DNA from: an uncultured Candidatus Saccharibacteria bacterium
GTDB taxonomy: Bacteria; Patescibacteriota; Minisyncoccia; Phycocordibacterales; EsbW-18
Reading direction: 5' to 3'
NCBI GenBank assembly: GCA_964478705.1
Contig: CAYZIR010000007.1
Span: 1-45,608 of the forward strand
Length of the DNA stretch: 45,608 bases
The notes beneath the pieces are model-generated. The model did not search any database, was not told the origin of the DNA, and saw nothing but the letters and a program-made list of their open reading frames with translations. The first letter of the stretch is position 1. Each line of letters begins with the position of its first letter. The position numbers and the translations under genes were made by a program. Below are positions 3,806-22,855 of this stretch, in pieces.

Positions 3806-3826
3806 GTATACTTATCACAATACTTT

Positions 3827-5605: not shown

Positions 5606-5620
5606 GTAAGAAAAGAAAAA

Positions 5621-5650: not shown

Positions 5651-5662
5651 GCAGAGACTTAG

Positions 5663-7835: not shown

Positions 7836-7837
7836 GA

Positions 7838-7867
7838 CACTTGCTAATTCGCGCGAATTAGCAAGTG
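7838..7867. promoter_or_regulatory. Perfect 14-2-14 palindrome abutting the ArsR start codon (candidate autoregulatory operator)
   Basis: CACTTGCTAATTCG-CG-CGAATTAGCAAGTG ends 2 nt from the ATG of the regulator. Confidence 0.6.
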
Positions 7868-7966
7868 TAGGATACGGGAGGGAGATAAGGGGAGGGTAAA
7901 AAATAATGAGAGAGGGAAGTTGTGGTTGTGGAGGATGATGATTTTTGCTGAGCGGAGTTTCCTTGA

Positions 7967-9066: not shown

Positions 9067-9399
9067 TTAGCGGAATTCGTAGAGCTTGTCGGCAAAGTTT
9101 TTGATGCGATCGTCTTTGTCAATTTCTATACCCTCTTCTTTGTAGAGTTTCATGCGCTTCGCGCGATACTCATCATTCACCCAAATGTGTCCGTCAGCAT
9201 AGACGATTCGATGGAAGGGAATTGAGATTCCTTGATCCGCTGCCTTCGAGAGAATCGAGGTGATGCTTTGTGCCGCCATCGCTCCCCCGCCACACGCTTT
9301 TGAAATTCGGCCGTACGTTGTGACGCGCCCTTTCGGAATTTTCCTCGCTGCATCAATCACCCGCTCGCTGAATGTAGAGCCATGGAGTTCCTTTTTCAT
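9067..9399 (-). CDS. Alkyltransferase-like (ATL) protein: MGMT DNA-binding domain without the acceptor cysteine
   Basis: IPKGRVTTYGRISK...PFHRIV. The canonical PCHR active site reads PFHR, so Cys is replaced by Phe. Confidence 0.8.
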   Translation of the reverse strand: MKKELHGSTFSERVIDAARKIPKGRVTTYGRISKACGGGAMAAQSITSILSKAADQGISIPFHRIVYADGHIWVNDEYRAKRMKLYKEEGIEIDKDDRIKNFADKLYEFR

Positions 9400-9869
9400 G
9401 AAGTATGCGATGAATGCATAAGTATGCGTACGTGCTTGAGAAGTTCATCGAGTGTAGAGAATTGCAGGAATCCATACCTCTCCTGCACCACATCGATATT
9501 CCCCTTCTTCCAGAATCCATCGGGGCACACCACAAGCAGTTTTCCGCTCTGTGCATAGAGTCCTGTTTCGAGAAGTGATATAGGGGACTTCGTGTTTGGG
9601 TCAAAGTACATGATGATGTAATCACTTTTTGAGAGCGCATCAAGCTCCCATTCCACCTGCCCTCGAAAATCTTGGTTGTCTTTGCTTTGTTCCCACGAGT
9701 TGTCCCAGCGATCGCGCCGAGGGTTGAGGAGAAGCACATCTTCATCAGCTAACTGCTCTGCGATATATTTTTGCCATTCTTCCGCAACGCCCATCTCAAT
9801 ACTTCCGCCGAGAAATATTTTTATAGTCTTTATATCCGGAATTTCATGCGGGGCTTTTATTTCGATCAT
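9396..9869 (-). CDS. Nucleoside 2-deoxyribosyltransferase-like protein
   Basis: KIFLGGSI..EEWQ..LLNPRRD..WELDALSKSDYIIMYF..SPISLLETGLYA pattern of the NDT-like fold. Its stop overlaps the ATL start (ATGA). Confidence 0.7.
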   Translation of the reverse strand: MIEIKAPHEIPDIKTIKIFLGGSIEMGVAEEWQKYIAEQLADEDVLLLNPRRDRWDNSWEQSKDNQDFRGQVEWELDALSKSDYIIMYFDPNTKSPISLLETGLYAQSGKLLVVCPDGFWKKGNIDVVQERYGFLQFSTLDELLKHVRILMHSSHTS

Positions 9870-9910
9870 AGTGTGTTGATTATTTTAACATTTCTTGTTT
9901 TTATCTGACA

Positions 9911-9943
9911 GAAAAAGACTCCGAAGCGAAATGCTCCGGAGTC
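9911..9943 (-). terminator. Intrinsic terminator after the PurA-like gene
   Basis: GACTCCG(9917-9923)/CGGAGTC(9937-9943), followed on the minus strand by TTTTT. Confidence 0.6.
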
Positions 9944-9952
9944 AGATGTACG

Positions 9953-11302
9953 TTATACCGCGACCGGCAAACGAACAGGTACTTCCTGTTTGTCGAGAGC
10001 CGTCGGTCCGTACGAGATGATCGAGAGAGGAACACCGAGCTCCTCCTCAACCATCTGAAAGAACAATGAGTCTTCGTTCGGTATCGACTCGTAGAGAGGA
10101 GTCACCTTCTCCAAAAGGCGCGTGAGCGTCTCTTGAAACACCAAATCGGTGAGTTCAGTCTTCACTGGTAGTCGACTGATCAGCCCAACGTCGTCATGAC
10201 TGTAGCCCGTACACATCATCTTCTGCGAGAGCGTACGAAACCTATCCATGTTCGTCATCGCAATCTGATCGACGCCTCCACACACTTCAAGTGCATAGCG
10301 CGTGAGCACTGCATCCAACCACCCGAGACGGAACGCTCCTTGCCACTCCCCTGTGCCGTTGTGCATATCGGGGATGAGCGCGGTGAGTTCCTTACTCTCG
10401 GTTGGGAATGGGCCAGCGCCGTGGCGTGTCTGATAGGCACGAACAACACCGAGCCGAGTAACATCTCCTTCGAAGTTGATATCGCGAAGAATCTCAAGCG
10501 CATTCGCGAATGTCGTGGTGCTCCACGTGGTATGCGGATGAAATCCGTACCACTCATCCAAGAGTACACCTTGTGCACCTTCGAGGATGAGGTCACCTTC
10601 TTCGGCACGTCGCTTGAGGTAGGTATCTCCGACGATCGGGAATTGTTGAGAGATCTTCCACATCGCCTCTGCATATTCACTCGGTGCAGAGCTCTGCTCG
10701 AGAATATCGATCTCTTCCGCGATGTGCGGGAGATGTTTGATACCATCAAGCAAACCAGTGAACTCAGCGCGCTTCATTTCTTGAACTTCAGAGAGAAGAC
10801 GAGCGAGTCGTTTTGGGTCACGGAGATCTGCTCCAACCACCTTGAGGTCGGGTCGCACAATTGAATCGTGGGTCGTTTCTCCGATTCCCATACCACAACT
10901 GCCATGCCTGGCGTTCCCGCGAAGCGCTTCCCTGAGTCGGTTTGCGGACTTCTGAAAACGCGTCACCACAAGCGCTTGCTCATGGAGCGAAAACCGGCTG
11001 TACACATTGCCACAACCAAGCTCTCGCAAATGACGAGCTTCCGGCTCAATCGCGAGCGGGTCGAAGAGCGAGAATCGAGAGATGTGCGTTTTCACACCTT
11101 GCACGAACGTTCCGCTCCCAAATTGCGCGAAGGTGTGATGCCGTCCATCAGGAGTAATGACGTTGTGCGCCGCCTGACCGCCTCCGTTGAATCGGACGAC
11201 GGTCGAAACGGACTTGTTCCGAGCAAGGTAGTCGACGATCGATCCCTTGCCCGCATCGCCAAAACCAAGATCGACAACGATTGTTGCATTCCGTTTTGAC
11301 AC
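9953..11302 (-). CDS. Divergent adenylosuccinate synthetase (PurA) family protein
   Basis: VVDLGFGDAGKGSIVDYL, GGGQAAHN, LEGAQG, TRHGAGPFPTE, GWLD and SYGP match the PurA signature order. Start set to GTG 11302, preceded by GGAGG. The TTG at 11359 would place a terminator hairpin inside the CDS. Confidence 0.85.
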   Translation of the reverse strand: MSKRNATIVVDLGFGDAGKGSIVDYLARNKSVSTVVRFNGGGQAAHNVITPDGRHHTFAQFGSGTFVQGVKTHISRFSLFDPLAIEPEARHLRELGCGNVYSRFSLHEQALVVTRFQKSANRLREALRGNARHGSCGMGIGETTHDSIVRPDLKVVGADLRDPKRLARLLSEVQEMKRAEFTGLLDGIKHLPHIAEEIDILEQSSAPSEYAEAMWKISQQFPIVGDTYLKRRAEEGDLILEGAQGVLLDEWYGFHPHTTWSTTTFANALEILRDINFEGDVTRLGVVRAYQTRHGAGPFPTESKELTALIPDMHNGTGEWQGAFRLGWLDAVLTRYALEVCGGVDQIAMTNMDRFRTLSQKMMCTGYSHDDVGLISRLPVKTELTDLVFQETLTRLLEKVTPLYESIPNEDSLFFQMVEEELGVPLSIISYGPTALDKQEVPVRLPVAV

Positions 11303-11315
11303 GCCGTGCCTCCGT

Positions 11316-11350
11316 GGAAAAGAAAAGCCGGGCTCTGTGGAGAGCCCGGC
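11316..11350 (-). terminator. Strong intrinsic terminator between the vWA gene and the PurA-like gene
   Basis: GCCGGGCTCT(11327-11336)/AGAGCCCGGC(11341-11350), a perfect 10-bp stem with a 4-nt loop. The minus strand continues TTTTCTTTTCC. Confidence 0.65.
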
Positions 11351-11364
11351 GGATTGCAATTCGA

Positions 11365-12381
11365 TTAGATCCGAGAAACTCCAGAACTACCAGCACCGAC
11401 GCCACCAGGAAGCGTTCCCGTTGCTACGTGTGCAGGCATCCGTGACTTTGCGACGGTTGCGAGCGCATTCGAAACGGATGTCCGCGCTCCACCACGCAAG
11501 TCGAGATCGTCCGCGACCATCACGAGATCCTTCGCGGTCTCGAGCATGTGGATGACACCAGCGATTGTCTCACAGACGAGATCGGCGTCGTCGAGAAGTA
11601 GAAGCCGTTCGCCGAGGAGATGGCGCCAGTTCTTCTGCACCCGTGGTTCACTGCCGTGTGCGGTGTTGCCCGAGAGGCAGATGTGGTAAATCTCCCATCG
11701 TTCGGACGCGCGAGCGATGAGATCCTTCACGGATTCGTCACTCGTCGCTTCGATGCCGAAAATATCCTGCACCTGACACTTCGTGACCGTCGGCCACGTC
11801 ATCTCGTCACCCATGGTGAAGAGATAGCCCTTCTTGCCACGCTTCTCGAACGAGTCGGTTGCGGTGTGATGTGCTGCGAATCGATACGCGAGAGCGTAGG
11901 ATTCGTGCACTTGCCCGCCACCACCACCTTCGAGGATGATGTTGCGGAGGGCCTCGTCGAACCGGTTGTCCGATTCGAACTGCCCGACTTGGAATGGATA
12001 CTGGTCGCACGTCGCATCGCCGATTGCACCGACGAGGACTTGCGGGTCCTTGATGCCGGTTTTGGCGAGAACGACGTCCATCAGCTTCGTCAACTTCTGC
12101 TGAAGCGTTCGTGGAACACTTCCCATCGATCCCGTGACGTCGAAGAAAACGGCGATCGGAAGCGATTCGGGATGCTCATCGCTATCCCTGCTCTCCCGAA
12201 CGTTCTGCCCTGCGAGCGGGCTCGTCGGCCCTGCGACGGTCTTCGGGTCGAGACTCGGATGAATTCCACTTGCCCGACCCGCCTTGACGTCTCTGTCGTG
12301 TTCGAAATCGTCGACACCACGTGTGCGACGATCCTCCCTGGCACGACTGTACGAACTCGAATCCCATCTACCGCCACCCAT
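11365..12381 (-). CDS. von Willebrand factor A (vWA) domain protein with a MIDAS-like motif and a disordered Arg/Asp-rich N-terminus
   Basis: IAVFFDVTGSMGS (D-x-T-x-S), then GAIGDATCD and LFTMGDEM downstream. AAGGAG RBS 8 nt upstream of ATG 12381. Confidence 0.8.
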   Translation of the reverse strand: MGGGRWDSSSYSRAREDRRTRGVDDFEHDRDVKAGRASGIHPSLDPKTVAGPTSPLAGQNVRESRDSDEHPESLPIAVFFDVTGSMGSVPRTLQQKLTKLMDVVLAKTGIKDPQVLVGAIGDATCDQYPFQVGQFESDNRFDEALRNIILEGGGGGQVHESYALAYRFAAHHTATDSFEKRGKKGYLFTMGDEMTWPTVTKCQVQDIFGIEATSDESVKDLIARASERWEIYHICLSGNTAHGSEPRVQKNWRHLLGERLLLLDDADLVCETIAGVIHMLETAKDLVMVADDLDLRGGARTSVSNALATVAKSRMPAHVATGTLPGGVGAGSSGVSRI

Positions 12382-12408
12382 GATAGCGCTCCTTTTTGTG
12401 ACCCGTCG

Positions 12409-13581
12409 TTAGCTCTGCATGGGAAGCGGGCGATAGCCACGCCCCCATTCCTTCCTGATGACACGGGTAAATTCATCAAGAAGTTCTTGCCCTGTTTGGA
12501 AACGCTCTCCACGAGAGTCTTTGACCGTACGAAGAACAACTGCACTGACCGACGAGGGCACTGCCGAGGGAATCGTGTTGGTTGCTGTGTTCCCGCCAAG
12601 AAGAGCGATCATCATTTTTCCAGCCATAAAAAGGTCGGTGCGACGATCGGGTTCTTCTTTTCTCAGCACCTCTTTCGGGTAGAAATCCTTCCACCGATCT
12701 ATGACATGCATCACTCGAAGATGCGAATGCGTCGGATCCTCGATCGCGTGAGCCCATCCAATGTGAAGTGGCTCGCGCTTTATTGGATCGACAAGAACGT
12801 GATCCGGTGTAATCGCCGAATGGACGACACCAGCCATATCAGCGGCAATCGTTTGCGCGATGATACGACGGAATATCCACCCCGCATGCTCAGGATCGAC
12901 CCCCTTCGGATATGCGCGCATGATGTCTGCGACCGATACAAGACCGTCGACATACGCGAGCACGTTGACCGCGTAGCGCGTTCCGTTCGGGCCGTTCATG
13001 AAGAACGACTCAACGAGCTTTGGAACAAACTGTGCGATTTTCGAAAGAGGATCGGACGCTCCTGCATCTCTGAAGCGCGAAAGAATCTTTGCCTCAGATG
13101 CAAGCCATCCATTGAACGACGGTTGTGACGATACTTTCACAAGCACCTCGCCTCCCGTCCCACCGATGACCTTCGCGCGATAAATCACGGAGAAGTCGCC
13201 GGTTTTGTATGGCGTTGAGAAGAGGTGATACGTGTGAAGTGGTGATGTGATTTCGGACACCGATTGTTTCGGAGAGCCTTTCGACGAAGCATTAGAAAAC
13301 GCTCCGGCGGTAAAAGGCTTTCCATAGGTTCCTACATTGATTGCTCGTTCAGCCGCATGACGGATGTCAGTAAGCTGACGAAACACATCTGCAGCTTCTA
13401 CTGCAAGGTGCTTCTCGACGTGATCGGGATGCACCATGAGTACAAGTTGTCTGAATTGCCGTCGCAGAGCACTCTGTTGCTTCGAGATTGCGCCGTCCGG
13501 CAATGTGCCGAAGATGCTGATGAAGCTCGTTGCCACACGAAGTTGTCTACCGACGCTTTCGAGGGTATCTGCTCCGGACAT
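12409..13581 (-). CDS. J-domain (HPD) fused to a protein-kinase-like domain with degenerate catalytic motifs (predicted pseudokinase)
   Basis: LRRQFRQLVLMVHPDHV...FRQLTDIRHAAERAI is J-domain helix II-HPD-helix III. Kinase-like features are TGDFSVIYRA, VLVKV, EAKIL, VVHSAITPDHVLV (HRD Asp becomes Ala), HIGWA in place of DFG, FYPKEV and TDLFMAGKMMIALLGG. AGGAGG RBS 9 nt upstream. Confidence 0.8.
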   Translation of the reverse strand: MSGADTLESVGRQLRVATSFISIFGTLPDGAISKQQSALRRQFRQLVLMVHPDHVEKHLAVEAADVFRQLTDIRHAAERAINVGTYGKPFTAGAFSNASSKGSPKQSVSEITSPLHTYHLFSTPYKTGDFSVIYRAKVIGGTGGEVLVKVSSQPSFNGWLASEAKILSRFRDAGASDPLSKIAQFVPKLVESFFMNGPNGTRYAVNVLAYVDGLVSVADIMRAYPKGVDPEHAGWIFRRIIAQTIAADMAGVVHSAITPDHVLVDPIKREPLHIGWAHAIEDPTHSHLRVMHVIDRWKDFYPKEVLRKEEPDRRTDLFMAGKMMIALLGGNTATNTIPSAVPSSVSAVVLRTVKDSRGERFQTGQELLDEFTRVIRKEWGRGYRPLPMQS

Positions 13582-13670
13582 AGCTCTCTGCCTCCTGTGG
13601 TTCTATGAAGTAGTGAAGCGCGAGTGTCCTCGCATCCTCTACGTTGACAAAGAACACGATACTCTAATTT

Positions 13671-13691
13671 GAAGTGTCTTTAATACACTAA
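13671..13691. promoter_or_regulatory. NrtR-type box A (GAAGTGT-N7-ACACTAA) in the 5' UTR region of the J-domain operon
   Basis: Matches the 21-bp palindrome TTAGTGT-N7-ACACTAA at 12 of 14 half-site positions. Confidence 0.5.
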
Positions 13692-13736
13692 CTGAGGATA
13701 AAAAATATATCCCCATCAGAGTCCGCTCTACCCTGA

Positions 13737-13765
13737 AGACTACTCTTCCTCTTACTTAGTGTCAA
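13737..13765 (-). promoter_or_regulatory. Candidate promoter of the J-domain/vWA operon (TTGACA-17-TAGTCT)
   Basis: The -35 TTGACA (rc of 13760-13765) lies inside box B. The -10 TAGTCT is the rc of 13737-13742. Confidence 0.45.
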
Positions 13766-13776
13766 TAGTACACAAT
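13756..13776. promoter_or_regulatory. NrtR-type box B (TTAGTGT-CAATAGT-ACACAAT)
   Basis: Left half is perfect and the right half matches 5 of 7. It overlaps the -35 of the minus-strand promoter. It forms an 18-bp inverted repeat (one mismatch) with 13792-13809. Confidence 0.55.
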
Positions 13777-13788
13777 ATGTACTGTGTA

Positions 13789-13809
13789 TAAGTGTAGTAT
13801 TGACACTAA
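13789..13809. promoter_or_regulatory. NrtR-type box C (TAAGTGT-AGTATTG-ACACTAA)
   Basis: 13 of 14 half-site matches. It overlaps the -35 TTGACA of the nrtR promoter. Confidence 0.55.
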
Positions 13810-13828
13810 ATAGATTTACCGGTATAGT
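13800..13828 (+). promoter_or_regulatory. nrtR promoter TTGACA-17-TATAGT, with the -10 ending 8 nt before the ATG (leaderless geometry)
   Basis: TTGACA 13800-13805, TATAGT 13823-13828, ATG 13837. Confidence 0.55.
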
Positions 13829-13836
13829 TCCCTTCT

Positions 13837-14535
13837 ATGAAACACCCAATCCCCTCACAAGCCCCCGACCACCTGCGCTTTGCTGTGCTTGCCTGCGATG
13901 TGGCGATCTTTACCATTAAAGACAACACACTCTACGTACGCACCGTTACTGTTAACCGCCCTCCGAGTTTCATTAATAGCCGAGGACTTCCTGGTGGACT
14001 CCTCCTCCCCCACGAGACAGCCGAAGAAGCAGCACTTCGTCATATCACCGAAAAGGCATTGATCAGCACAAAAAAAATATACATGGAACAGCTCTACACA
14101 TTTAGTAGAGTTGATCGTGATCCTCGTGGACGCGTCGTTGCTGTGGCATACCTCTGCCTCGTGCCATGGGAGTCTCTTTCCGCAATCGAACAATCCGATA
14201 CTGACGGCGCTCGTTGGATGCCAGTTTCTGATGCAAAGAAACTCGCATACGATCATGACGAGATACTCTCGGTTGCGGTCAATCGTCTTCGCTCACGCAT
14301 AACGTACACAACACTCATCAGCAAACTCATCCCAGTAGAATTCACGCTCTCTGACCTCGAACGTGCGTACGCATCAATCCTCGCAACCACGCTCGACAAA
14401 CGAAACTTCCGAAAAAAAGTTGAAAAACTCAAAATACTCACGGAACTTCCGTACAAACGGACCGGTGGAGCCTTTCGACCAGCGGCGCTCTACAAGTTCG
14501 CTTCGAATAAAGTCAAAGAAATCGAGATTCTCTAA
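13837..14535 (+). CDS. nrtR: NrtR-family Nudix-related transcriptional regulator of NAD metabolism
   Basis: N-terminal Nudix fold with a degenerate Nudix box (GGLLLPHETAEEAALRHITEKALI). C-terminal wHTH region (YDHDEILSVAVNRLRSRITYTTL..LDKRNFRKKV). 232 aa, adjacent to nadM/Nampt. Confidence 0.88.
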   Translation: MKHPIPSQAPDHLRFAVLACDVAIFTIKDNTLYVRTVTVNRPPSFINSRGLPGGLLLPHETAEEAALRHITEKALISTKKIYMEQLYTFSRVDRDPRGRVVAVAYLCLVPWESLSAIEQSDTDGARWMPVSDAKKLAYDHDEILSVAVNRLRSRITYTTLISKLIPVEFTLSDLERAYASILATTLDKRNFRKKVEKLKILTELPYKRTGGAFRPAALYKFASNKVKEIEIL

Positions 14536-14542
14536 CTCTCTC

Positions 14543-14569
14543 AAAAAGCCCTTCCTTACGGGGCTTTTT
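14543..14569 (+). terminator. Intrinsic terminator after nrtR
   Basis: AGCCC/GGGCT stem followed by TTTTT. Confidence 0.65.
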
Positions 14570-14589
14570 GCTATCCACAGATACCGTTG

Positions 14590-14618
14590 TTGACAATCGA
14601 ATGCTTATTGTATAAGAT
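14590..14618 (+). promoter_or_regulatory. Candidate nadM promoter (TTGACA then TATAAG at 15 nt or TAAGAT at 17 nt)
   Basis: TTGACA at 14590-14595. The -10 candidates at 14611-14618 are overlapped by NrtR-type box E. Confidence 0.5.
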
Positions 14619-14625
14619 ACACTTA
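14605..14625. promoter_or_regulatory. NrtR-type box E (TTATTGT-ATAAGAT-ACACTTA)
   Basis: 12 of 14 half-site matches. It overlaps the -10 region of the nadM promoter. Confidence 0.45.
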
Positions 14626-14662
14626 GTATGGGGTTGGGAAGACATATATTTTTTACCTTCAG

Positions 14663-14683
14663 TTAGTGTAATAAATACATTAT
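14663..14683. promoter_or_regulatory. NrtR-type box D (TTAGTGT-AATAAAT-ACATTAT)
   Basis: Left half is perfect and the right half matches 5 of 7. It lies between the promoter and the nadM RBS. Confidence 0.45.
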
Positions 14684-14724
14684 CTACCCTCTCCGCCATG
14701 TTCTTTGACAAGGAGAAAATACAC

Positions 14725-15633
14725 ATGCAACCAGAAACCATCGGAGTTATCGTCGCTCGGTTTCAGGTTCCCTGCCTCCACAAAGGGCATCGGTATCTGA
14801 TCAACTACGTGAACTCGCGCTGTGAGAAGCTCGTCATCGTTCTCGGTACGCCACGGTCCTTCCCTACCAAGAAGAACCCTCTGTCATTCGAGATGCGACG
14901 AGTAATGATTGCGCGACAGTATCCGAATGCGATCATCGCGTCGCTTCCCGATACCAAGCTCGACGCGCAGTGGAGCACCGCACTTGATGCTGTCATCGCC
15001 TCCGCTCTGTGCGGAAAGGTTGACGGCATACAAGTGACGCTCTACGGGTCGCGCGATTCCTTCATTACGCACTACAGTGGTGTGCATCAGACCGAACTCG
15101 TTCCCCCTCTGGGCAACGTGAACGGCACGAAGCACCGCGAACGCCTCGCAGATGTCGCCGACTCGGTGAAATTCCGCGAAGGCATCATTCACACACAGAT
15201 GAGCCGTCCGCCGATCGTCTACCCGACGGTCGACGTGGCCATCATCCGCGCTGAAACCGGAGAAGTACTCCTCGGCGGAAAAGCGTGTGACGGCGGAAAG
15301 CTCCGCTTCATCGGAGGCTTCGTCGATCCGACAAAGGATGCCTCGTATGCAGACGCCGGAAAGCGCGAAGCATTCGAGGAAACCAACGGTATGGAAATCG
15401 CCGACCTGAAACAAATCGGCTCGGCCAAGATCGATGACTGGCGATATCGTGGCACGGAAGACTGTGTCATAACGTCATTCTTCATCGCTACGTACGTATT
15501 CGGGGCTCTCACGCCAAGTGACGACCTCGACTATCTCACGTGGATCCCTGTTCTGCAGGTCATGGAACACCTCGTTCCTGAGCACGAGCCATTGGGGCAC
15601 ATGCTCATCTCGCATTTCAACCAGACACTCTGA
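14725..15633 (+). CDS. nadM: Bifunctional NMN adenylyltransferase (NadM-type) / Nudix hydrolase
   Basis: IGVIVARFQVPCLHKGHRYL carries the nucleotidyltransferase HxGH motif. The C-terminal Nudix box is GGFVDPTKDASYADAGKREAFEETNG. AAGGAG RBS 9 nt before ATG 14725. The 14587 TTG extension is rejected. Confidence 0.88.
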   Translation: MQPETIGVIVARFQVPCLHKGHRYLINYVNSRCEKLVIVLGTPRSFPTKKNPLSFEMRRVMIARQYPNAIIASLPDTKLDAQWSTALDAVIASALCGKVDGIQVTLYGSRDSFITHYSGVHQTELVPPLGNVNGTKHRERLADVADSVKFREGIIHTQMSRPPIVYPTVDVAIIRAETGEVLLGGKACDGGKLRFIGGFVDPTKDASYADAGKREAFEETNGMEIADLKQIGSAKIDDWRYRGTEDCVITSFFIATYVFGALTPSDDLDYLTWIPVLQVMEHLVPEHEPLGHMLISHFNQTL

Positions 15634-15644
15634 AGGAGAGTGCT

Positions 15645-17048
15645 ATGAACGCGAACATGGAAATCGGCAACACCATCACCCGCACCGACAGCTACAAGGT
15701 CACGCATCACCTGCAGTACCCCGGAAAGACGGAGATCCTTTTTTCCTTCTTCGAGAGTCGCGGTGGCGATTTCCCCACGGTCACCTTCTACGGCCTCCAG
15801 TATTACCTCAAGCGGTATCTCGAGGGCGTTGTGGTCACCGAGAAGATGTTGCCGAAGGCCCGTCGGCGCTTCGCCGCGCACTTCGGATCCACCAAGCTCT
15901 TCAATGAACAGGCGTGGCAGAGAATCATCGATGTGCACGGTGGCAAGTTGCCCATCCGCATCAAGGCGGTTCCCGAGGGGACGACCATCCCCACGAGCAA
16001 CGTGTTGATGACGGTCGAAAACACCGATCCTGAGATTCCGTGGGTCACGAACTACGTTGAGACACTTCTCTCGATGTTGTGGTATCCGTCGACGGTGGCA
16101 ACCCAGAGCCGTGCGATGCGGAAGCTCGTTCTCTCCTTCCTAGAAGAGACTGGCGATCCGTCACTCATCGACTTCAAGGTTCACGATTTCGGATTCCGTG
16201 GCTCGACTTCGGTCGAATCCGCGGGAATCGGTGGCTCGGCTCATCTCGTTTCCTTCAAGGGAACGGACACACTGGTTGCGCTCGACATCGCTGAGGATTA
16301 CTACGGAGAAGAGTGTGCGGGATTTTCCATCCCCGCCGCTGAGCACTCCACGATCACTTCGTGGGGCAGAGCTCGAGAGGTGGACGCCTATGAGAACATG
16401 CTCACGGCGTTCCCGACCGGCCTCGTTGCGGTGGTTTCCGACAGCTACGACATCTTCCGCGCCTGCAGTGAACTCTGGGGCAAGGAACTTCGTGACAAGG
16501 TTCTCAATCGCGATGGTGTCTTGGTGGTTCGTCCTGACAGTGGATACCCGCCGGACGTGGTCGTGAAGGTGCTCGATATTCTCGGCAACGCCTTCGGCTA
16601 CAGCATCAACGGCAAGGGCTACAAGGTCTTGAACCCGAAGGTGCGCGTCATCCAGGGCGATGGCATCGACTTCTCGATGCTTCGCCGAGTACTCGAAGCG
16701 ATGAAACAGCACGGCTGGTCGGCCGACAACGTCGCGTTCGGTTCCGGTGGTGGCCTTCTGCAGAAGCTGAACCGCGATACCTTGAAGTTCGCGTTCAAAG
16801 CCTGTGCAGTCCGCATCGAAGATCTCTGGCACGACGACATCATGAAGGACCCGGTGACGGATCATTCCAAGCGTTCGAAGGCTGGTCGTCTCGTCCTCGT
16901 CAAGGATGACAAGGAATGGAAGACCGTGCGCGAAGAGGAAGCGATGCGTGCAGGGCTCAACAACGAGCTCGTCACGGTTTTCGAGAATGGTGAAGTCCTT
17001 GTGGACTACACGTTCAGCGAGATCCGCGAACGAGCGCTCGTCGGCTGA
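15645..17048 (+). CDS. nadV: Nicotinamide phosphoribosyltransferase (Nampt/NadV)
   Basis: TDSYKVTHHLQYP, HDFGFRGSTS and VVSDSYD are classical Nampt motifs. 467 aa. Confidence 0.93.
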   Translation: MNANMEIGNTITRTDSYKVTHHLQYPGKTEILFSFFESRGGDFPTVTFYGLQYYLKRYLEGVVVTEKMLPKARRRFAAHFGSTKLFNEQAWQRIIDVHGGKLPIRIKAVPEGTTIPTSNVLMTVENTDPEIPWVTNYVETLLSMLWYPSTVATQSRAMRKLVLSFLEETGDPSLIDFKVHDFGFRGSTSVESAGIGGSAHLVSFKGTDTLVALDIAEDYYGEECAGFSIPAAEHSTITSWGRAREVDAYENMLTAFPTGLVAVVSDSYDIFRACSELWGKELRDKVLNRDGVLVVRPDSGYPPDVVVKVLDILGNAFGYSINGKGYKVLNPKVRVIQGDGIDFSMLRRVLEAMKQHGWSADNVAFGSGGGLLQKLNRDTLKFAFKACAVRIEDLWHDDIMKDPVTDHSKRSKAGRLVLVKDDKEWKTVREEEAMRAGLNNELVTVFENGEVLVDYTFSEIRERALVG

Positions 17049-17088
17049 CCTCGGTTCTATGCCACTATGTATCTATCCTTGTTGCTCT

Positions 17089-17117
17089 CCACCGCTCCTT
17101 CGGGGGTGGTTTTTTTA
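17089..17117 (+). terminator. Intrinsic terminator after nadV
   Basis: CCACC..GGTGG stem followed by TTTTTTT. Confidence 0.6.
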
Positions 17118-17141
17118 TTCCCGCACATTGTGCTCAATTAA

Positions 17142-17178
17142 AAAAGCGCCGTCTCGTTAGAGACGGCGCAGGAAGAAC
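17142..17178 (-). terminator. 37-bp repeat copy 1: terminator of the HD-hydrolase gene
   Basis: AAAAGCGCCGTCTCGTTAGAGACGGCGCAGGAAGAAC. GCGCCGTCTC/GAGACGGCGC is a perfect 10-bp stem with a T-run on the minus strand. Identical to 17856-17892. Confidence 0.7.
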
Positions 17179-17179
17179 T

Positions 17180-17785
17180 TCAGCCAAGGCTTGCGAGTGC
17201 CTCCTCAATCTCGTGCATCAAGATGAGGTGCTTCCACGCGTGCGGAAGGTAGTAGCGTCTCGTCTCCTCGATTTTCCGCCGTCGCTTTTCTGGGGTGCAT
17301 GCATACAGCGTCAACAGGTTGTGGAGGCGATCAGCCAATTTGATGATGAAAAAGTCTCGCGGAGCGGACTCGAACCGGGTGTGGTAGACGAGTTCTCGTT
17401 CCTCACGATCCGGATAGTCCTTCTTCGAAGGCTTGGTCAGATACTCGACCAAGAGTGCCACACGATCGCCATACTTTCTCCGTACCCGCTCAACCGTCCA
17501 TTCAGGGATGTCTTCCACGATATCGTGGAGAAGCCCTGCGATGATGAGCTCGTGATTCTTGATGCGAAGGTAGTGAAGCAGGATCAACGTGACGGCGCGA
17601 ATGTGCTCGAAATATCGCGTCTCTTGGTCGTCGCGAAACTTTCCACGAAACGCGTCCTTCGCGTCATCGTACGCTTGTATGATCAACGTATGACGCCAGT
17701 CGAGCGTCGGGTAGTGCAACGCCACTCGCCTGAAGAAAGTCGCACGATTTTCCGCTGCGGTCAGAAACTCCATTCTCTTAGTCAT
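17180..17785 (-). CDS. Stand-alone RelA/SpoT-type HD hydrolase (small alarmone hydrolase-like)
   Basis: HIRAVTLILL..AGLLHDIVEDI..YGDRVALLVEYLTKP..IKLADRLHNLLTL matches the (p)ppGpp hydrolase domain. No synthetase domain. AGGAGG RBS. Confidence 0.85.
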   Translation of the reverse strand: MTKRMEFLTAAENRATFFRRVALHYPTLDWRHTLIIQAYDDAKDAFRGKFRDDQETRYFEHIRAVTLILLHYLRIKNHELIIAGLLHDIVEDIPEWTVERVRRKYGDRVALLVEYLTKPSKKDYPDREERELVYHTRFESAPRDFFIIKLADRLHNLLTLYACTPEKRRRKIEETRRYYLPHAWKHLILMHEIEEALASLG

Positions 17786-17813
17786 CGCTACCTCCTGTGT
17801 ATAATCTGATTAA

Positions 17814-17842
17814 ATTATAGAACAAAATATATTATCTGTCTA
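17814..17842 (-). promoter_or_regulatory. Promoter of the HD-hydrolase gene (TAGACA-17-TATAAT)
   Basis: On the plus strand ATTATA is at 17814-17819 and TGTCTA at 17837-17842, with a 17-nt spacer. Confidence 0.55.
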
Positions 17843-17855
17843 TTCTTTCAAATAT

Positions 17856-17892
17856 AAAAGCGCCGTCTCGTTAGAGACGGCGCAGGAAGAAC
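17856..17892 (-). terminator. 37-bp repeat copy 2: terminator of the zinc-ribbon gene
   Basis: Identical 37-mer to 17142-17178. Confidence 0.7.
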
Positions 17893-17898
17893 ATGTCG

Positions 17899-18864
17899 TC
17901 AGGAAACGCTCGTCAACAAACTCTGCTTTCCCAAGATTCCAAGGAACTGCAGGAGCTGTTCCTTGTTCCACGCGTGAACCTCGATCGACTTCGCTGAAAC
18001 GGCTCCACCTTGCCAAGCGTCGTCGGCAATGTAGGTCACGTTAAGTGCAGTGGCTATCGTTCGGATTTCCTCGGTTGCGATCCCTTGAGGCGAGTAGAGC
18101 TTGATCGCAGTCACGCGCTTTCGTGGCCCCACAACGAATCTGTTCTCTCCGATACGGAATTTGAACCAGGGCTCGCTTTCCGATGGATAGTACTCATTCG
18201 CCGTGAGCTCAGGATCGATATCACATCCCAACTGATCACGAAGCGTCCGAAACACGTCAGCAAAGAATGCATCATGCTTCGTCCGGATCGGATCTGGTGG
18301 CACACTCTGCGCAAGACTTTCTTCACGATTCACCTGCTCCCAAACATACTCACCTTGAACCTCTGACAAACAAAGGAAGGCCGTGAGCCCCGCAGGAAGC
18401 TTTGGCGGAATCGGAGGCTTTGTGAAGCCACTCGGCTTCAAATACGATTTGAATGTACGCAACAAATCCCAGTGCTTCCACCATTGCTTTTGCAATTCTT
18501 TTGGCACTTGGTCGAATGTACTACCAGAAGGAAGACTCAACGTTTGACACGCGAGCTCCAACCAAAGCTCTTCCATCGGCTTACGAGCTTCCTTGAGGCG
18601 TTCTTCCGCATCACGCCACGTTGGCATCAAAACGGCATTGAGCCAATAGTTGACACTATCAGATATACCGCTCGATGGTTCGAGAGCGACGAGAAACACA
18701 TTACCACCAGCATGAGACAAGAAATGCGCATCTCTTTCGCAGTTGTCACACTTAAATCCCTGTTGACTAAGAGATGAGAGATTTGCACCTCTCGGATTCC
18801 ACTTTCTCTCGCCACAGAGACATTTCGGCAACTTTTCTGGTAGCATGCTCTGCCATCCTTTCAC
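17899..18864 (-). CDS. Hypothetical protein with an N-terminal CxC..CxxC zinc ribbon
   Basis: KCLCGERKW...FKCDNCERDAH. No recognised domain in the remaining ~270 aa. An alternative start is ATG 18846, preceded by AAGGA. Confidence 0.6.
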   Translation of the reverse strand: MKGWQSMLPEKLPKCLCGERKWNPRGANLSSLSQQGFKCDNCERDAHFLSHAGGNVFLVALEPSSGISDSVNYWLNAVLMPTWRDAEERLKEARKPMEELWLELACQTLSLPSGSTFDQVPKELQKQWWKHWDLLRTFKSYLKPSGFTKPPIPPKLPAGLTAFLCLSEVQGEYVWEQVNREESLAQSVPPDPIRTKHDAFFADVFRTLRDQLGCDIDPELTANEYYPSESEPWFKFRIGENRFVVGPRKRVTAIKLYSPQGIATEEIRTIATALNVTYIADDAWQGGAVSAKSIEVHAWNKEQLLQFLGILGKQSLLTSVS

Positions 18865-19018
18865 GCGATAGCACGGACGATTCCATGACTATGTCTGGGA
18901 AGACACTACCACATCTTTCATAGTGTGTAAATGTTAGCGCTTGATGCACCTCATTCCTTCGTGTGACATCAAGCACCCGTTCGGAGAAGGATTTTGCAAT
19001 AGGATTAAATCGTAGTCC

Positions 19019-19050
19019 CAAAAAGAAAAGACTGCCAAGGGTGGCAGTCT
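19019..19050 (-). terminator. Intrinsic terminator after the ParB-like gene
   Basis: AGACTGCCA/TGGCAGTCT 9-bp stem with a 4-nt loop. The minus strand continues TTTTCTTTTT. Confidence 0.6.
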
Positions 19051-19076
19051 CAGAAACACGGTGTCTTTTCCCTTCT

Positions 19077-19757
19077 TCAACGTGGGAACTTGGTTCTCTC
19101 GATCACTTTGATGAGTTCGTCGAGCTCACCGAGACGGAACGCAACATAGGCACAACGCCGTTGAACGCGCTTCAGGTCATCCTCGTTCTCGAAAGCATTT
19201 CGGAGATCGACGAGACTAAACCTCCCGAAACGAGAGAAGCTCTGATCGGCGGCGATCAGAATATCCAGAATCTCACCCAGAACATCCCTATCGTACTGAG
19301 GCGTCGCTACCTCAACAACATCTGGTTGTGGTGTATCAAGGTGGTCATCTTTCACGTGCGAATCCTGCCCTGCCAACGCTGCATGGTACATCTTCCTGAG
19401 CTTCGGAGCACTAATGCGCTCATCGAGAGCACGTCGTGCCCACACATCTTGATGCGCCTGGTGTAATCGGGCAATTTCAAAAGCAGTCGATATAGGAAGC
19501 TTTCTACCTGACTCATTCCCCTTCTCGACCAGCTCGAGCACCACCGAAGTAACCTTGCTGAGACGGAGCGCTTCAGAAATCTGGAATTGGTTCATACCGA
19601 CCTTACCGGCTAGAACCGCTTGAGTACATCCCAGAATCTCTTGGAGTCTCATGAGATGCCTCAATCGGGGTACATAGTCCTGCTCCCGCTTGGCTTGCTC
19701 GATGAGATCGTTGATGAGGTCTTCGTTCGAAGGGCTTGGAACAGCGACCAGGGTCAT
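19077..19757 (-). CDS. HTH DNA-binding protein, ParB/KorB-like (no N-terminal ParB/Srx box seen)
   Basis: LQEILGCTQAVLAGKVGMNQFQISEALRLSKV resembles the ParB HTH. The C-terminal half is acidic. Confidence 0.55.
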   Translation of the reverse strand: MTLVAVPSPSNEDLINDLIEQAKREQDYVPRLRHLMRLQEILGCTQAVLAGKVGMNQFQISEALRLSKVTSVVLELVEKGNESGRKLPISTAFEIARLHQAHQDVWARRALDERISAPKLRKMYHAALAGQDSHVKDDHLDTPQPDVVEVATPQYDRDVLGEILDILIAADQSFSRFGRFSLVDLRNAFENEDDLKRVQRRCAYVAFRLGELDELIKVIERTKFPR

Positions 19758-19869
19758 GCTTTCTCCTCTCTCGTTTTGTTATTATCTGGACGAATAGTAG
19801 TTGAAAAGAGAATTAAGTCAATTCAATCGCCTTGATTCGAGGCCATATTATCTATATGATTCTCCCATT

Positions 19870-19944
19870 GGCCCCATCGTCTAGCCTGGCCTAGGACGTC
19901 GCCTTCTCAAGGCGAAAACTCGGGTTCGAATCCCGATGGGGTCA
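19870..19944 (+). tRNA. tRNA-Glu (anticodon CUC)
   Basis: Cloverleaf: acceptor GGCCCCA/TGGGGTC, 3-bp D stem GTC/GAC, anticodon stem TCGCC/GGCGA with loop TTCTCAA, T arm TCGGG-TTCGAAT-CCCGA, discriminator A. CCA is not fully encoded. Confidence 0.9.
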
Positions 19945-19956
19945 CCGTCAACAGCG

Positions 19957-21520
19957 CACACGAGAAGAATGTATAAAGTATGAAGAAAATAAATTTTATA
20001 CAATCTGAAACTGGTATAGGTATGGAACTAGAGCTTAGTTCCAACCTTGTTATTGTTGGGGCTAATGGTTCAGGTAAATCAAGATTTGGTTCTACCCTTG
20101 AAAAAAATAACCCTCATTCTAAAAGAATATCTGCCCAAAGATATCTACAACTTCAAGAAAACGTTCAGAAGCAAGATTTTGAAAGTGCTGAAAACAGTCT
20201 TAAATCAGTTTTCAAAAACCAATCTGTAATCACTCCTCAAAATGATTTTCAACAAGCACTCATTACTCTTTTTGCTGAAGAGGGTAAAAGAGATGCTGAA
20301 TATGTTGCCCAGGCAAAATTAAGTGGTAAAACCAAACTAGAAATACCTCAGTCAAAAAAAGAACAAGTACTTGATGTTTGGAGCTTTGTTTTTCCTAACA
20401 GGTTGTTAAAACTTGAAAAAGATAGAATCAAAGGCGTAAGTGATACCAATGAATTTTCTGGCTCAGAATTAAGTGATGGAGAAAGAGTTGGTTTGTATCT
20501 TATCTCTCAAGTATTACTTGCTCCCCAAGATTGTCTACTTATCATAGACGAGCCGGAAATACACTTACATAAATCTTTAATGACGAGATTGTGGAATAAG
20601 CTGGAAAATGTAAGAAGTGATTGTACTTTTATTTACATTACACACGATCTAGATTTTGCAGTCTCAAAGTCTGCTTCAAAAACAATATGGATTGAGTGGT
20701 ATAAGGACTTAAAGTGGAAATGGACAGAGATTAGCTCTGCTGAATACATACCTGACAACTTGCTCCTAGAAGTTCTTGGTAGTAGAAATCCAATTTTATT
20801 TGTTGAGGGAGATAAGGGCAGTTTAGATCAACAACTATACCAGTCTTACTATGAACATTTTACTGTCATACCAAGAGGTAGTTGTGAGAAGGTTATTGAA
20901 GCAGTCAAGGGTCTCAATGATAACCAATCATTGCATCACAATAAGGCTTTTGGCTTAATTGACCGAGATTATAGGATTGAGGCAGAAATAACTACACTCA
21001 AGAGCAAAAATATATTTACTACTCCGACCAAACATATTGAAAATATATTTTTGTTTCCTGAAATTATTGGAATAGTTGCGGAATATCTTTCTCAAAAAGA
21101 AAAGAAAGACATAATAATTACTGAAATAAAAGAGGAGTTTAAGTCCCAACTAGAAAATATTAACTTTTCAATTAAAAAAACGAGATTGTTAAGTTATCTA
21201 GCAAGAGAAGCTGGCCAGATAAAAGATGAAGCTTCTCTGGTAAATTTTAAGTCTAGATTATCAAGTGGGATTGATACTTTCCTTGGTACCATTACACCTG
21301 TTGTTGAAACTGAAGATATCTTAGAGATCTTAAAACTATACCCTCACAAAGGTTTAGTTTCTAAAGCCCAATCTCAATTAGGAATAAAAGATAATTTATA
21401 TCAAAACATTGTTCTTAGTTTTCTAACATCTCAAAAGAGAAAAGAATTAACGGAAATACTTAAAAAGTATTTACCTGATATATCTTAAGTGTAGTTGAAT
21501 TATTATAGTCACACGAGAAG
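19957..21520 (+). mobile_element. AT-rich single-gene insertion bounded by 11-bp direct repeats CACACGAGAAG
   Basis: Repeats at 19957-19967 and 21510-21520 bracket the 19980..21488 gene exactly. A sampled 60-nt stretch is ~28% GC against 42-55% in the flanks. It sits 13 nt after the tRNA-Glu. Confidence 0.55.
19980..21488 (+). CDS. ABC-type ATPase fused to a DUF4435/TOPRIM-like domain (OLD/PARIS-like defence candidate)
   Basis: Walker A GANGSGKS, signature-like LSDGER, Walker B LLIIDEPEIHLH and H-loop ITHD. The C-terminal part has ILFVEGDKGSLD...GLIDRDYR (E...DxD Toprim-like). Confidence 0.8.
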   Translation: MKKINFIQSETGIGMELELSSNLVIVGANGSGKSRFGSTLEKNNPHSKRISAQRYLQLQENVQKQDFESAENSLKSVFKNQSVITPQNDFQQALITLFAEEGKRDAEYVAQAKLSGKTKLEIPQSKKEQVLDVWSFVFPNRLLKLEKDRIKGVSDTNEFSGSELSDGERVGLYLISQVLLAPQDCLLIIDEPEIHLHKSLMTRLWNKLENVRSDCTFIYITHDLDFAVSKSASKTIWIEWYKDLKWKWTEISSAEYIPDNLLLEVLGSRNPILFVEGDKGSLDQQLYQSYYEHFTVIPRGSCEKVIEAVKGLNDNQSLHHNKAFGLIDRDYRIEAEITTLKSKNIFTTPTKHIENIFLFPEIIGIVAEYLSQKEKKDIIITEIKEEFKSQLENINFSIKKTRLLSYLAREAGQIKDEASLVNFKSRLSSGIDTFLGTITPVVETEDILEILKLYPHKGLVSKAQSQLGIKDNLYQNIVLSFLTSQKRKELTEILKKYLPDIS

Positions 21521-21571
21521 GGTCACAACGAAAAAATCTATACCCTACACCCAAGTGGCTATACCCTGCTT

Positions 21572-22855
21572 CTAGCGCTTGTTCCACTCGCTTCCCTGCC
21601 GCACAAGGAGCTTAGCGTCTCGGGGCTCTTTTAAGATTTCGCTCACAATTTTTTCTATCCGCACACCCTGTGAGCCTTTGCACAAAACAACATCCCCCGA
21701 AGCGATTTCATCGTGAACATAGCCAATTGCATCTTCAGCTCGTTTGAATGCTTTCACACGCATAAGACCATTGTCTGTTGCTGAGTTCGCAATTTCTTCC
21801 GCTTCATCCCCAACGGTCACCAGTGAATCAACGAACGTTGCAGTATATGCACCCGCACTGCGATGCGCTTCTTTTGATAAAGCGCCGAGTTCACGCATAT
21901 CTCCCAGTACTGCAATTTTCTTTCCACGTACACGAATGTCGTGAAGGGTTGCGAGTGCTTCACGGAGAGCGACCGGTGAAGCATTGTAGGTGTCATCAAT
22001 AATCGTCGAGTCCTTGAGTCCTTTAAGAAGACGCATACGCCCAGGCGAAAGTTCTGTCTCTTGAAGTGCACGGACTGCCTCCTCTGGGTCATTGTCGAGT
22101 GCACGGGCAACAGCTACTGCAGCGAGTGCTGGATACACAAATTGTTTTCCAAGAACACCATCGCATGAAAACGGATACATGCTTGAACCGATAAGAATGT
22201 TTGCTTCAATGCCTTTTGCGGTTCCAAATGCATCATAGGTAATTGCATAGCGGTCACCACGCACCGTTGCACCTTCACCAAAACCAAATGTTGATGCTTT
22301 GGGACCAAATGTCTCGCGCATCACTCGCACCTTCTCATCATCGTGTGCAAGGACAACCTTCCCGCCTTTGCGCAACCCGTGAAAGATCTTTAACTTTTCC
22401 TCGCGGAGTGCATCAACAGAAGGGAAATTACCAGAGTGTACCGGCGTGTCACCAATGTATCCAACCACCGCAACGTCGAGCGGGAGCCATTGCATCAAGC
22501 GCTCCATGTCATGAGGAGCGTCAACACCAAGTTCGAGCACAAGCACCTCAGGATATCGGCGAATAGCGAGCGCTTTAAAAAGACCGCGCGCAAGCACCCC
22601 TGCCCATGCGAACGGATTCATCCAGCCGGTGTCTTCGCCGAGAATCGTGAGTGGAACACCGAGTTCTGAGTTGAAGCTTTTAGCACTTTTACGTACTTCG
22701 TAGTGCACTGACAATGCCGTGGCAATCGCTTCTTTCGTTGATGTCTTCCCTACGCTTCCCGTGACTCCGATGATAATCGGGTGATGACGCGAAAGAAGAA
22801 GACGTGCTTCAAGCGATAGGAGTGATGCGACGATGTGCTTGAAGAGGGTTTTCAT
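21572..22855 (-). CDS. murF: UDP-N-acetylmuramoyl-tripeptide--D-alanyl-D-alanine ligase
   Basis: IIGVTGSVGKTSTKE P-loop, Mur ligase central and C-terminal regions, dcw-cluster context. Confidence 0.9.
   Translation of the reverse strand: MKTLFKHIVASLLSLEARLLLSRHHPIIIGVTGSVGKTSTKEAIATALSVHYEVRKSAKSFNSELGVPLTILGEDTGWMNPFAWAGVLARGLFKALAIRRYPEVLVLELGVDAPHDMERLMQWLPLDVAVVGYIGDTPVHSGNFPSVDALREEKLKIFHGLRKGGKVVLAHDDEKVRVMRETFGPKASTFGFGEGATVRGDRYAITYDAFGTAKGIEANILIGSSMYPFSCDGVLGKQFVYPALAAVAVARALDNDPEEAVRALQETELSPGRMRLLKGLKDSTIIDDTYNASPVALREALATLHDIRVRGKKIAVLGDMRELGALSKEAHRSAGAYTATFVDSLVTVGDEAEEIANSATDNGLMRVKAFKRAEDAIGYVHDEIASGDVVLCKGSQGVRIEKIVSEILKEPRDAKLLVRQGSEWNKR

Follow-up and report, generated by a model that had tools for sequence, protein, structure and literature searches.

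PARIS is a guard system that senses the anti-restriction proteins of phages (PMC11464382). In the two-gene form known from E. coli, anti-restriction proteins such as Ocr act as triggers (PMC11464382) and the AriB subunit cuts tRNA (PMC11464382, PMC12409363). The published phylogeny divides PARIS into 11 clades, two of which carry a merged ariAB gene with a single origin from clade 9 (PMC11464382), and few defence systems of any kind have been reported in Patescibacteria (PMC12366544). Here, we describe an ariAB gene in a 45,608-nt stretch of DNA from an uncultured Candidatus Saccharibacteria bacterium (contig CAYZIR010000007.1; this whole stretch is called the window, and positions without further label refer to it). 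We consider it probable that ~19946-21523 is a foreign, AT-rich islet of ~1.58 kb, lacking an integrase and lodged at the 3′ end of a tRNA-Glu(CUC) gene, that it encodes a merged PARIS protein acting in abortive defence by cutting tRNA, and that it was moved by a recombinase supplied in trans or since lost.

Merged PARIS proteins—the 'PARIS merge' types of DefenseFinder and the AriAB family of PADLOC—consist of one chain of ~500-570 amino acids in which an ABC ATPase is followed by a DUF4435 Toprim domain, and they are encoded by stand-alone genes on mobile DNA or beside restriction systems. The gene in the window matches this description, with all catalytic motifs conserved; it differs in its Patescibacteria host and, at 502 residues, lies at the short end of the size range. 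Its parts are as follows.

19980-21488, forward strand: ariAB, encoding the fused PARIS protein of 502 amino acids; the only open reading frame (ORF) between the repeats described below, starting 34 nt after tRNA-Glu
19980-20735, forward strand: predicted ABC/SMC-type ATPase module, residues 1 to ~252, with Walker A (residues 27-34) at 20058-20081 and a three-helix insertion of ~85 amino acids
20784-21059, forward strand: predicted Toprim core of the DUF4435 domain, residues 269-360, with E276 (20805-20807), D283, D328-x-D330 (20961-20969) and E354

A first, sequence-only reading of this DNA had taken the product for an ABC-ATPase/DUF4435-Toprim fusion of the PARIS family, and profile searches bear this out. 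The PADLOC AriAB profile PDLC02982 matches with E=2e-119 and 397.8 bits, aligning residues 18-501 with positions 43-567 of 570, while AriB (2e-15), ATPase-Toprim_I-B (8.7e-13), AriA (1.6e-12) and GajA (1.3e-7, with its best stretch confined to residues 150-209) score far lower. In Pfam, DUF4435 (PF14491) is matched at residues 269-458 with 5e-17 and 62.9 bits (cut-off 27), AAA_21 with 33.3 bits (cut-off 27) and ABC_tran with 28.6 bits (cut-off 25). Two further families that had been proposed for checking did not follow suit: Toprim_OLD gave no match at E<=1, and AAA_15 reached 13.9 bits, below its cut-off of 32.1. The 502-residue start is supported by the fact that relatives align from residue 1. 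By its profile matches and motifs, the window protein is thus a merged-type PARIS protein.

All of the motifs that had been read from the translation are present, namely GANGSGKS (residues 27-34; Walker A), LSDGER (164-169; signature), LLIIDEPE (186-193; Walker B), ITHD (220-223; H-loop) and the Toprim-like pair ILFVEGDKGSLD (272-283) and GLIDRDYR (325-332). In an alignment of 40 relatives reaching down to 37% identity, the ATPase residues G27-x-x-G-x-G-K33, Q53, S165-D-G-E168, D190-E191 and H222 are invariant, and so are the acidic Toprim residues E276, D283, D328, D330 and E354. The ratio of non-synonymous to synonymous divergence (dN/dS) against close relatives is 0.06-0.10, and ariAB is therefore intact and under purifying selection.

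An AlphaFold2 model of the whole protein (mean predicted local distance difference test score, pLDDT, 86.7) contains an ABC head of ~250 residues with the three-helix insertion, a four-stranded alpha/beta Toprim core and a helical tail; each of the five invariant Toprim residues follows a beta-strand in this model, the glutamate and DxD motif directly. Its best Foldseek matches, at ~2e-7, are the retron/Septu protein PtuA, Gabija GajA and Rad50, and AriA is absent from the best 50. As no structural match to solved PARIS was obtained, the PARIS assignment rests on profile hidden Markov models and motifs, not on structure.

The two-gene system of E. coli B185 (AriA, 55 kDa; AriB, 35 kDa; PMC11464382, PMC12409363) combines the same two domain families. 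Residues E26, D88, E90 and E122 of its AriB probably correspond to E276, D328, D330 and E354 of the window protein, a pairing made by motif and not by alignment. Unlike in the two-gene system, the ATPase of the window protein spans only ~250 residues and has its three-helix insertion in place of the coiled-coil and trigger-binding regions, and its fused chain leaves no AriB to be released from an AriA hexamer. PDB searches by sequence or fold, moreover, do not recover AriA or AriB, the sequences having diverged too far. Near the window ariAB, there is no second ATPase or DUF4435 gene, so that the locus is a single ORF and not a two-gene PARIS.

The sequence-only reading had further called this single-polypeptide version unusually compact, a view that does not hold. 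Merged ariAB genes are published, a PADLOC profile exists for them and a profile search of 1.84 billion representative proteins yielded 1,613 clusters (at 50% identity) with E<=1e-30. Among the best 150 of these, nearly all members are 510-590 residues long and match end to end, with ~12 truncated fragments. Most representatives have 520-570 residues; 502 falls at the lower end of this range of lengths but is usual for its Patescibacteria clade (499-511). Fused AriAB is thus neither new nor unusually compact, and the window gene is one more member.

Related genes of ~500 codons occur in many phyla according to metagenome and genome scans, which returned mostly relatives of 30-39% identity, none with a tRNA gene within 600 nt. 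AriAB relatives are also carried by 60 plasmids, some of them conjugative and from Campylobacter, others small (5-6 kb) and from E. coli or Salmonella, and by one temperate phage, Oenococcus phage phi9805, whereas IMG/VR contains no relative of the window protein. The window gene shows merged AriAB to move as a minimal one-gene unit across very different hosts, Patescibacteria and a Bacteroidota-like contig having copies of 69% identity. The window gene adds a clear PARIS-type system to Patescibacteria; current understanding is not overturned by any of these findings.

Beyond PARIS, ABC ATPase and Toprim domains share one chain in the OLD nucleases and in Gabija GajA. Their mode of action would have the Toprim domain nick or degrade phage or host DNA, gated by nucleotide state or DNA-end sensing, instead of cutting tRNA; we regard this as an unlikely alternative, though it has several observations in its favour. 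GajA (8x5i, E=2.3e-7) is among the fold matches of the whole protein, the only Toprim-type PDB match of the C-terminal domain is the Thermus OLD nuclease (6p74), a weak match with a probability of 0.66, PADLOC also returns ATPase-Toprim_I-B and GajA at the levels given above, and the PARIS studies cited here report no substrate for a merged AriAB. Yet the AriAB profile scores 398 bits as opposed to <=46 bits for any non-PARIS model, Pfam assigns the Toprim domain to DUF4435 and not to Toprim_OLD, and no GajB-like or UvrD-type helicase adjoins ariAB. The published tree, moreover, places merged AriAB within two-gene PARIS (clade 9), whose AriB is a tRNase.

The surroundings of the window gene comprise the following features.

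19832-19860, forward strand: promoter-like site TTGATT-17 nt-TATGAT just upstream of tRNA-Glu; the sole promoter-like site able to drive the tRNA and, by read-through, ariAB
19870-19946, forward strand: tRNA-Glu, anticodon CUC (ARAGORN; Rfam RF00005, 57 bits, end at 19944); host gene and insertion target
19939-19945, forward strand: GGGTCAC, final bases of the tRNA acceptor strand; left host/insert boundary and candidate recombination core
19947-19956, forward strand: spacer GTCAACAGCG; inserted DNA, shared with the L172 copy as TCAACAGCG
19957-19967, forward strand: left repeat J1, CACACGAGAAG; counterparts GCTCGAGAAG in L008 and GCACGAGTAG in L172 at equal offset from the tRNA end and the ATG
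21489-21509, forward strand: 3′ untranslated stretch of 21 nt, conserved with the L172 copy
21510-21520, forward strand: right repeat J2, CACACGAGAAG; its aligned counterparts are J2 in L172, L008 and L173 and, in L010, a site upstream of the gene
21520-21526, forward strand: GGGTCAC, repeat of the tRNA 3′ end; right insert/host boundary
21525-21613, reverse strand: host murF 3′ flank and end of murF, 81% nucleotide identity to L195 5243-5336
21572-22855, reverse strand: murF, the right-hand host neighbour

As had been noted from the sequence, an exact 11-bp direct repeat brackets the single gene. It begins 11-13 nt past the end of the tRNA, depending on whether the ARAGORN or the Rfam end is used (13 nt had been stated), and its right copy ends 51 nt from the murF stop codon (about 50 had been given). 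Elsewhere in the 45.6 kb, the sole near-match to the 11-mer lies at 3268 with one mismatch. Among 8,074 random pairs of 60-nt segments spaced 1,509 nt apart and taken from all DNA under analysis, 13 (0.16%) contained a direct repeat of at least 11 nt and 41 (0.5%) one of at least 10 nt. A chance origin is excluded because the same core recurs at the same offsets in two unrelated contigs.

The islet also stands out by composition: ariAB has a GC content of 0.327 and a GC content at third codon positions (GC3) of 0.235, compared with 0.535 and 0.498 in the 5 kb to its left and right and a GC3 of 0.44-0.75 in host genes. The contrast seen in the sequence-only reading is therefore genuine, although its interior figure of ~28% is slightly low, 300-nt segments ranging from 0.29 to 0.37. 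Over hosts with a GC content of 0.30-0.53, the gene keeps to 0.31-0.34 and a GC3 of 0.23-0.29, which likewise speaks for a foreign origin.

The boundaries can be placed by comparison with L195, a contig of a related host with the gene order mraZ-rsmH-ftsL-ftsI-murF, tRNA-Glu, NT5C-MGMT. Its tRNA-Glu(CUC) is identical to that of the window over 78 of 78 nt and its MGMT, adenine glycosylase and Zincin_1 proteins are 89-94% identical, while the dcw cluster agrees at 65-72% of nucleotides. At the tRNA-Glu/murF locus, L195 has neither AriAB nor the spacer nor the 11-mer. On the left, identity to the window ends at 19945, and on the right it starts again at 21525, limits that agree within 2 nt with those deduced from other copies of the cassette (19947-21523). 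With L195 identity running to 19945 and inserted DNA starting at 19946-19947, the comparison places the insertion exactly at the 3′ end of tRNA-Glu.

The same cassette occurs behind tRNA-Glu in two further genomes. One copy (L171/L172; 84% amino acid identity) follows a tRNA-Glu(UUC) gene between tRNA-Ser and tRNA-Ala, and the other (L008/L009; 75%) follows another tRNA-Glu(UUC) gene and adjoins trmB. The three hosts (window, L172 and L008) differ in GC content and have entirely different flanking genes, but in each of them ariAB starts 34-35 nt after tRNA-Glu and the geometry is the same: tRNA, 10-11 nt, repeat, 12-14 nt, ATG, and, at the other end, stop codon, 21 nt, repeat, GGT. The repeat reads CACACGAGAAG in the window, GCTCGAGAAG in L008 and GCACGAGTAG (left) and GCACGAGAAG (right) in L172, with a shared core of C(A/T)CGAGAAG; homology among the copies ends at 21523. 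Foreign composition, insertion boundaries and recurrence at tRNA-Glu genes are thus all observed, and horizontal acquisition of the islet is well supported. Acquisition, as first proposed, is borne out by foreign composition and insertion at the tRNA; 'recent' can only be meant relatively, as synonymous divergence (dS) from the nearest copy is ~1.

The comparison also revises the nature of the repeat. The spacer TCAACAGCG is common to the window and L172 and missing after the tRNA-Glu of L195 and L002. Because spacer and J1 recur in L172, where the tRNA-Glu in front is another isoacceptor, they are part of the inserted DNA; with the left repeat inside the insert, a pair of element-borne sites is likelier than a simple target-site duplication. 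The empty site expected from the sequence-only reading—tRNA-Glu, one 11-mer and murF—was not found, the L195 tRNA lying in the opposite orientation and lacking the 11-mer.

Other relatives lie in a range of mobile and defence contexts, in keeping with the expectation that homologues would be found in defence islands. In L002 (77% amino acid identity), the gene comes last in a low-GC island of 6.2 kb; the island begins with a tRNA-Glu(UUC) gene, which a large serine recombinase abuts. In L004-7 (69%), a Bacteroidota-like contig, it is part of an island that also encodes TrwB and two tyrosine integrases and lies 131 nt after tRNA-Lys. Repeats of the att type were looked for in the L005 and L002 islands and none were found. 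The L010 copy (75%) follows a CBASS-like block of SAVED and SMODS genes on a prophage-like contig and adjoins ftsI. Further copies directly follow an NgoPII type II restriction-modification pair (L183-192, 56%), lie in a type I system with hsdS on one side and hsdR on the other (L011, 56%) or start 2 nt after an ORF resembling a ResIII helicase/TnsA (L193, 69%). This repeated linkage to restriction systems fits the guard role of PARIS against anti-restriction proteins and the 'anti-anti-restriction' role of the two-gene form.

Two of these loci merit additional remarks. The L002 island contains a LOOT RNA (Rfam RF03000, 77.7 bits) at 4017-4139, and its AriAB homologue has a GTG start 7 nt after the extended -10-like site TGCTATAAT (5975-6003), which suggests a leaderless or near-leaderless transcript. 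In L010, genes for an S24 peptidase/repressor, SAVED and SMODS proteins lie immediately upstream of the AriAB homologue (2401-5812); the contig encodes a terminase and an N6/N4 methylase as well, and ftsI-ftsL-rsmH-mraZ directly adjoins the whole block.

These comparisons bear on whether ariAB could instead be a long-resident gene, its AT-richness a property of the family and its repeats regulatory or RNA-processing motifs. In support, ariAB has the same GC content (0.31-0.34) in every host, and low GC may be a family trait; dS between window and L172 is 0.96, with 64% identity at four-fold degenerate sites; and all contigs of the window population carry the gene. The L172 repeats, moreover, agree with each other at 9 of 11 positions and the right one with the window repeat at 10 of 11, as conserved motifs might. 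The non-coding ends of the two copies are likewise more conserved than synonymous sites (31 of 34 nt for the 3′ flank plus J2; 17 of 21 for spacer plus J1) and are therefore under constraint. Long residence is nonetheless very improbable: L195 has neighbours that are 83-94% identical and an identical tRNA, yet no gene, spacer or repeat; the flanking genes of the three tRNA-Glu-linked copies are wholly different; close relatives lie in integrase islands, restriction-modification operons and a prophage-like contig; and a GC3 of 0.235 in a host with 0.44-0.75 would be hard to keep for long.

Hardly credible, finally, is an addiction module whose toxicity penalises loss of the islet and thereby stabilises a selfish element without sensing phage, for although Pfam lists AAA_21 as a putative AbiEii toxin (type IV toxin-antitoxin systems) and a minimal element has this gene as its one cargo here, the gene also occurring on small E. 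coli and Salmonella plasmids, it has no antitoxin-like partner, its one fused polypeptide lacks an unstable antidote component and its repeated embedding in restriction-modification operons better suits a guard of restriction systems.

For the merged PARIS islet, a course of events can be proposed by homology to the two-gene system. The ATPase module would hold the Toprim nuclease inactive and sense a phage protein, upon which the Toprim site (E276, D328/D330, E354) would cut host tRNA within its anticodon stem, and loss of translation would abort the infection. With both modules in one chain, the nuclease cannot be set free to dimerise as in E. coli PARIS, and we infer that activation is a conformational or oligomeric switch. 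Whether the nuclease has to be released for PARIS immunity is a question for which the fused form with its short ATPase offers a natural test. As to expression, the 33 nt between tRNA-Glu and the ATG contain no promoter-like or terminator-like site, and ariAB is probably co-transcribed with tRNA-Glu by read-through from the tRNA promoter. The tRNA itself, the only one that ARAGORN finds in the window, was considered as a part of the system, for instance as a resistant tRNA. This was rejected, given that it is identical in L195, which lacks ariAB, and that the three hosts use different tRNA-Glu genes.

Site-specific recombination at the 3′ end of tRNA-Glu would have brought in the cassette, with the 11-bp repeats and their core C(A/T)CGAGAAG as element-borne sites on both sides of the gene after integration. 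If the ends were joined as a circle, the repeats could be read as flanking a GGGTCAC core like arm sites around an attP core. If the islet is mobile, its empty site would read GGGGTCAC joined to AACGAAAAAATC and the excised circle CACACGAGAAGGGT(CA) joined to CGTCAACAGCGCACACGAGAAG. The presence of GGGTCAC at both boundaries is suggestive only, since a match to the tRNA 3′ end as good as that at 21520-21526 is found in 26% of random 200-nt segments. Among the other right junctions, similarity to the tRNA 3′ end has p=0.04-0.07 in L008 and p=0.5 in L172. Decay of the junctions from copies of the tRNA 3′ end is accordingly not significant for the window and L172 and marginal for L008.

Several points weigh against this account. 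Trigger, substrate and phenotype of the window AriAB are taken over by homology, and at about half the size of E. coli AriA, its ATPase part has neither the long coiled-coil nor the trigger-binding regions; sensing may therefore differ. The C-terminal model (pLDDT 91.6) has no significant match in PDB or BFVD, and sequence-profile searches of the PDB reached neither AriA nor AriB. On the side of mobility, the resemblance between right junction and tRNA 3′ end does not reach statistical significance, and no recombinase was found in the 45.6-kb window with the L002 serine recombinase and the two L004 tyrosine integrases as queries. L195 does not qualify as a simple empty site, its tRNA-Glu having the reverse orientation with respect to murF; at the far end of the 12-kb variable block, no inverted repeat copy was found that might explain the inversion. 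All four contigs that encode an identical ParB-like neighbour protein also carry ariAB, leaving no empty site from the same species.

Small cargo-only DNA at tRNA 3′ ends, bounded by short direct repeats and lacking an integrase, is known from the cis-mobilisable elements of streptococcal integrative and conjugative elements and from degraded tycheposon remnants in Prochlorococcus islands. The window islet resembles them in this layout and in that related cargo occurs in full elements with recombinases (L002 and L004-7), its own DNA containing just the one ORF. Apparent tandem arrays of sites are a further likeness: L008 and L172 each have three J sites, two of which enclose a non-coding module of ~85 nt. 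In contrast to such islets, the window repeats do not clearly duplicate the 3′ end of the tRNA, and the left one lies 10 nt beyond the tRNA, within the insert.

The ~85-nt module follows the right repeat in L172, L173 and L008 and ends in a third copy of the motif plus G(G/C)TCAC. It is located at L172 1894-1990, L008 7533-7630, L173 2372-2470 and L010 5872-5972, with the layout J site + GGT...CTTACWGGGYAAYGAAC...GTTCTATC-CGAG-AG-GCTCAC, and the window holds only its first 24 nt. In L010, the module is upstream of ariAB and in the other three loci downstream, meaning that the units can occur in different orders. It has no Rfam match, and an nhmmer model finds only the four source loci and nothing else in 2 Mb of the loci compared; when IMG/VR was scanned for the module motif and for the left and right junctions, there were only chance matches or none. 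Single-sequence folds are no better than those of shuffled sequences, except weakly for L172 (z=-2.1), and a known RNA was rejected as an explanation of the module.

A promoterless single ORF with very short untranslated ends and a short conserved core on either side also recalls integron cassettes, as does the occurrence of the same unit in different arrays and orders (L010 as opposed to L008 and L172). Unlike those cassettes, the flanks contain neither an attC-type imperfect palindrome nor a GTTRRRY/RYYYAAC core, there is no IntI-like gene and the insertion point is a tRNA gene. It is conceivable, if rather doubtful, that the C(A/T)CGAGAAG sites of 9-11 bp and GG(G/C)TCAC, which resembles the tRNA end, mark an undescribed cassette system of Patescibacteria at tRNA-Glu 3′ ends, in which promoterless single-gene defence cassettes and the ORF-less ~85-nt module would be integrated, stacked and put into new orders by a recombinase in trans, the cassettes being expressed by read-through from the tRNA promoter. 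The geometry conserved in three genomes, the different unit order in L010 and the conservation of the flanks beyond that of synonymous sites speak for this possibility. Such a system would be a tRNA-anchored analogue of the integron, and the conserved flanking sites could serve to identify a tRNA-Glu-specific integration system in an uncultured phylum. Short of this, it is of mild interest that a promoterless one-gene unit with conserved ends and no integrase follows tRNA-Glu in three Patescibacteria genomes.

As for the host, Patescibacteria are indicated by MurF and the dcw genes, with Patescibacteria, Campbellbacteria and Paceibacteria as the best named matches. The nearest MurF homologue is only 58% identical, and a near-identical genome without ariAB was not found in the collections searched. 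Divergence from L195 is uneven, with 65-72% nucleotide identity in dcw/murF, 83-89% in the MGMT block and 100% in the tRNA. Between MGMT and murF, 12.1 kb of the window (9376-21524) stand in place of 0.8 kb in L195 and comprise a nucleoside deoxyribosyltransferase-like gene, purA, an NrtR-Nudix-NAMPT cluster, an HD gene, a ParB-HTH gene, the tRNA and AriAB. In the 3′ flank of murF (21537-21566), CTATACCCT occurs twice, 22 nt apart, and is kept in L195.

Within this block, the NAD-salvage cluster at 13837-17048 encodes NrtR (Nudix plus winged helix), a Nudix-containing protein of 348 residues and NAMPT, and has a GC content of 0.54-0.57 compared with ~0.49 for the window. The NrtR gene lies between the arms of an inverted repeat of 36 nt (13675-13710 and 14644-14679). 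A single HD_4 gene (17180-17785, reverse strand) is bracketed by a 45-nt direct repeat of 96% identity (17134-17178 and 17848-17892), both copies of which contain the hairpin GCGCCGTCTC-GTTA-GAGACGGCGC, making it another one-gene unit between direct repeats. The MGMT-adenine glycosylase-Zincin operon of the window, finally, includes two genes that are missing in L195, one at 8555-9061 and one at 7551-7997 (reverse strand), annotated in this order as 2′-5′ RNA ligase-like and ArsR-type helix-turn-helix (HTH). The first of these has a GC content of 0.385 and is flanked by the repeated stop/start junction CTAAGAA(A)TATG.

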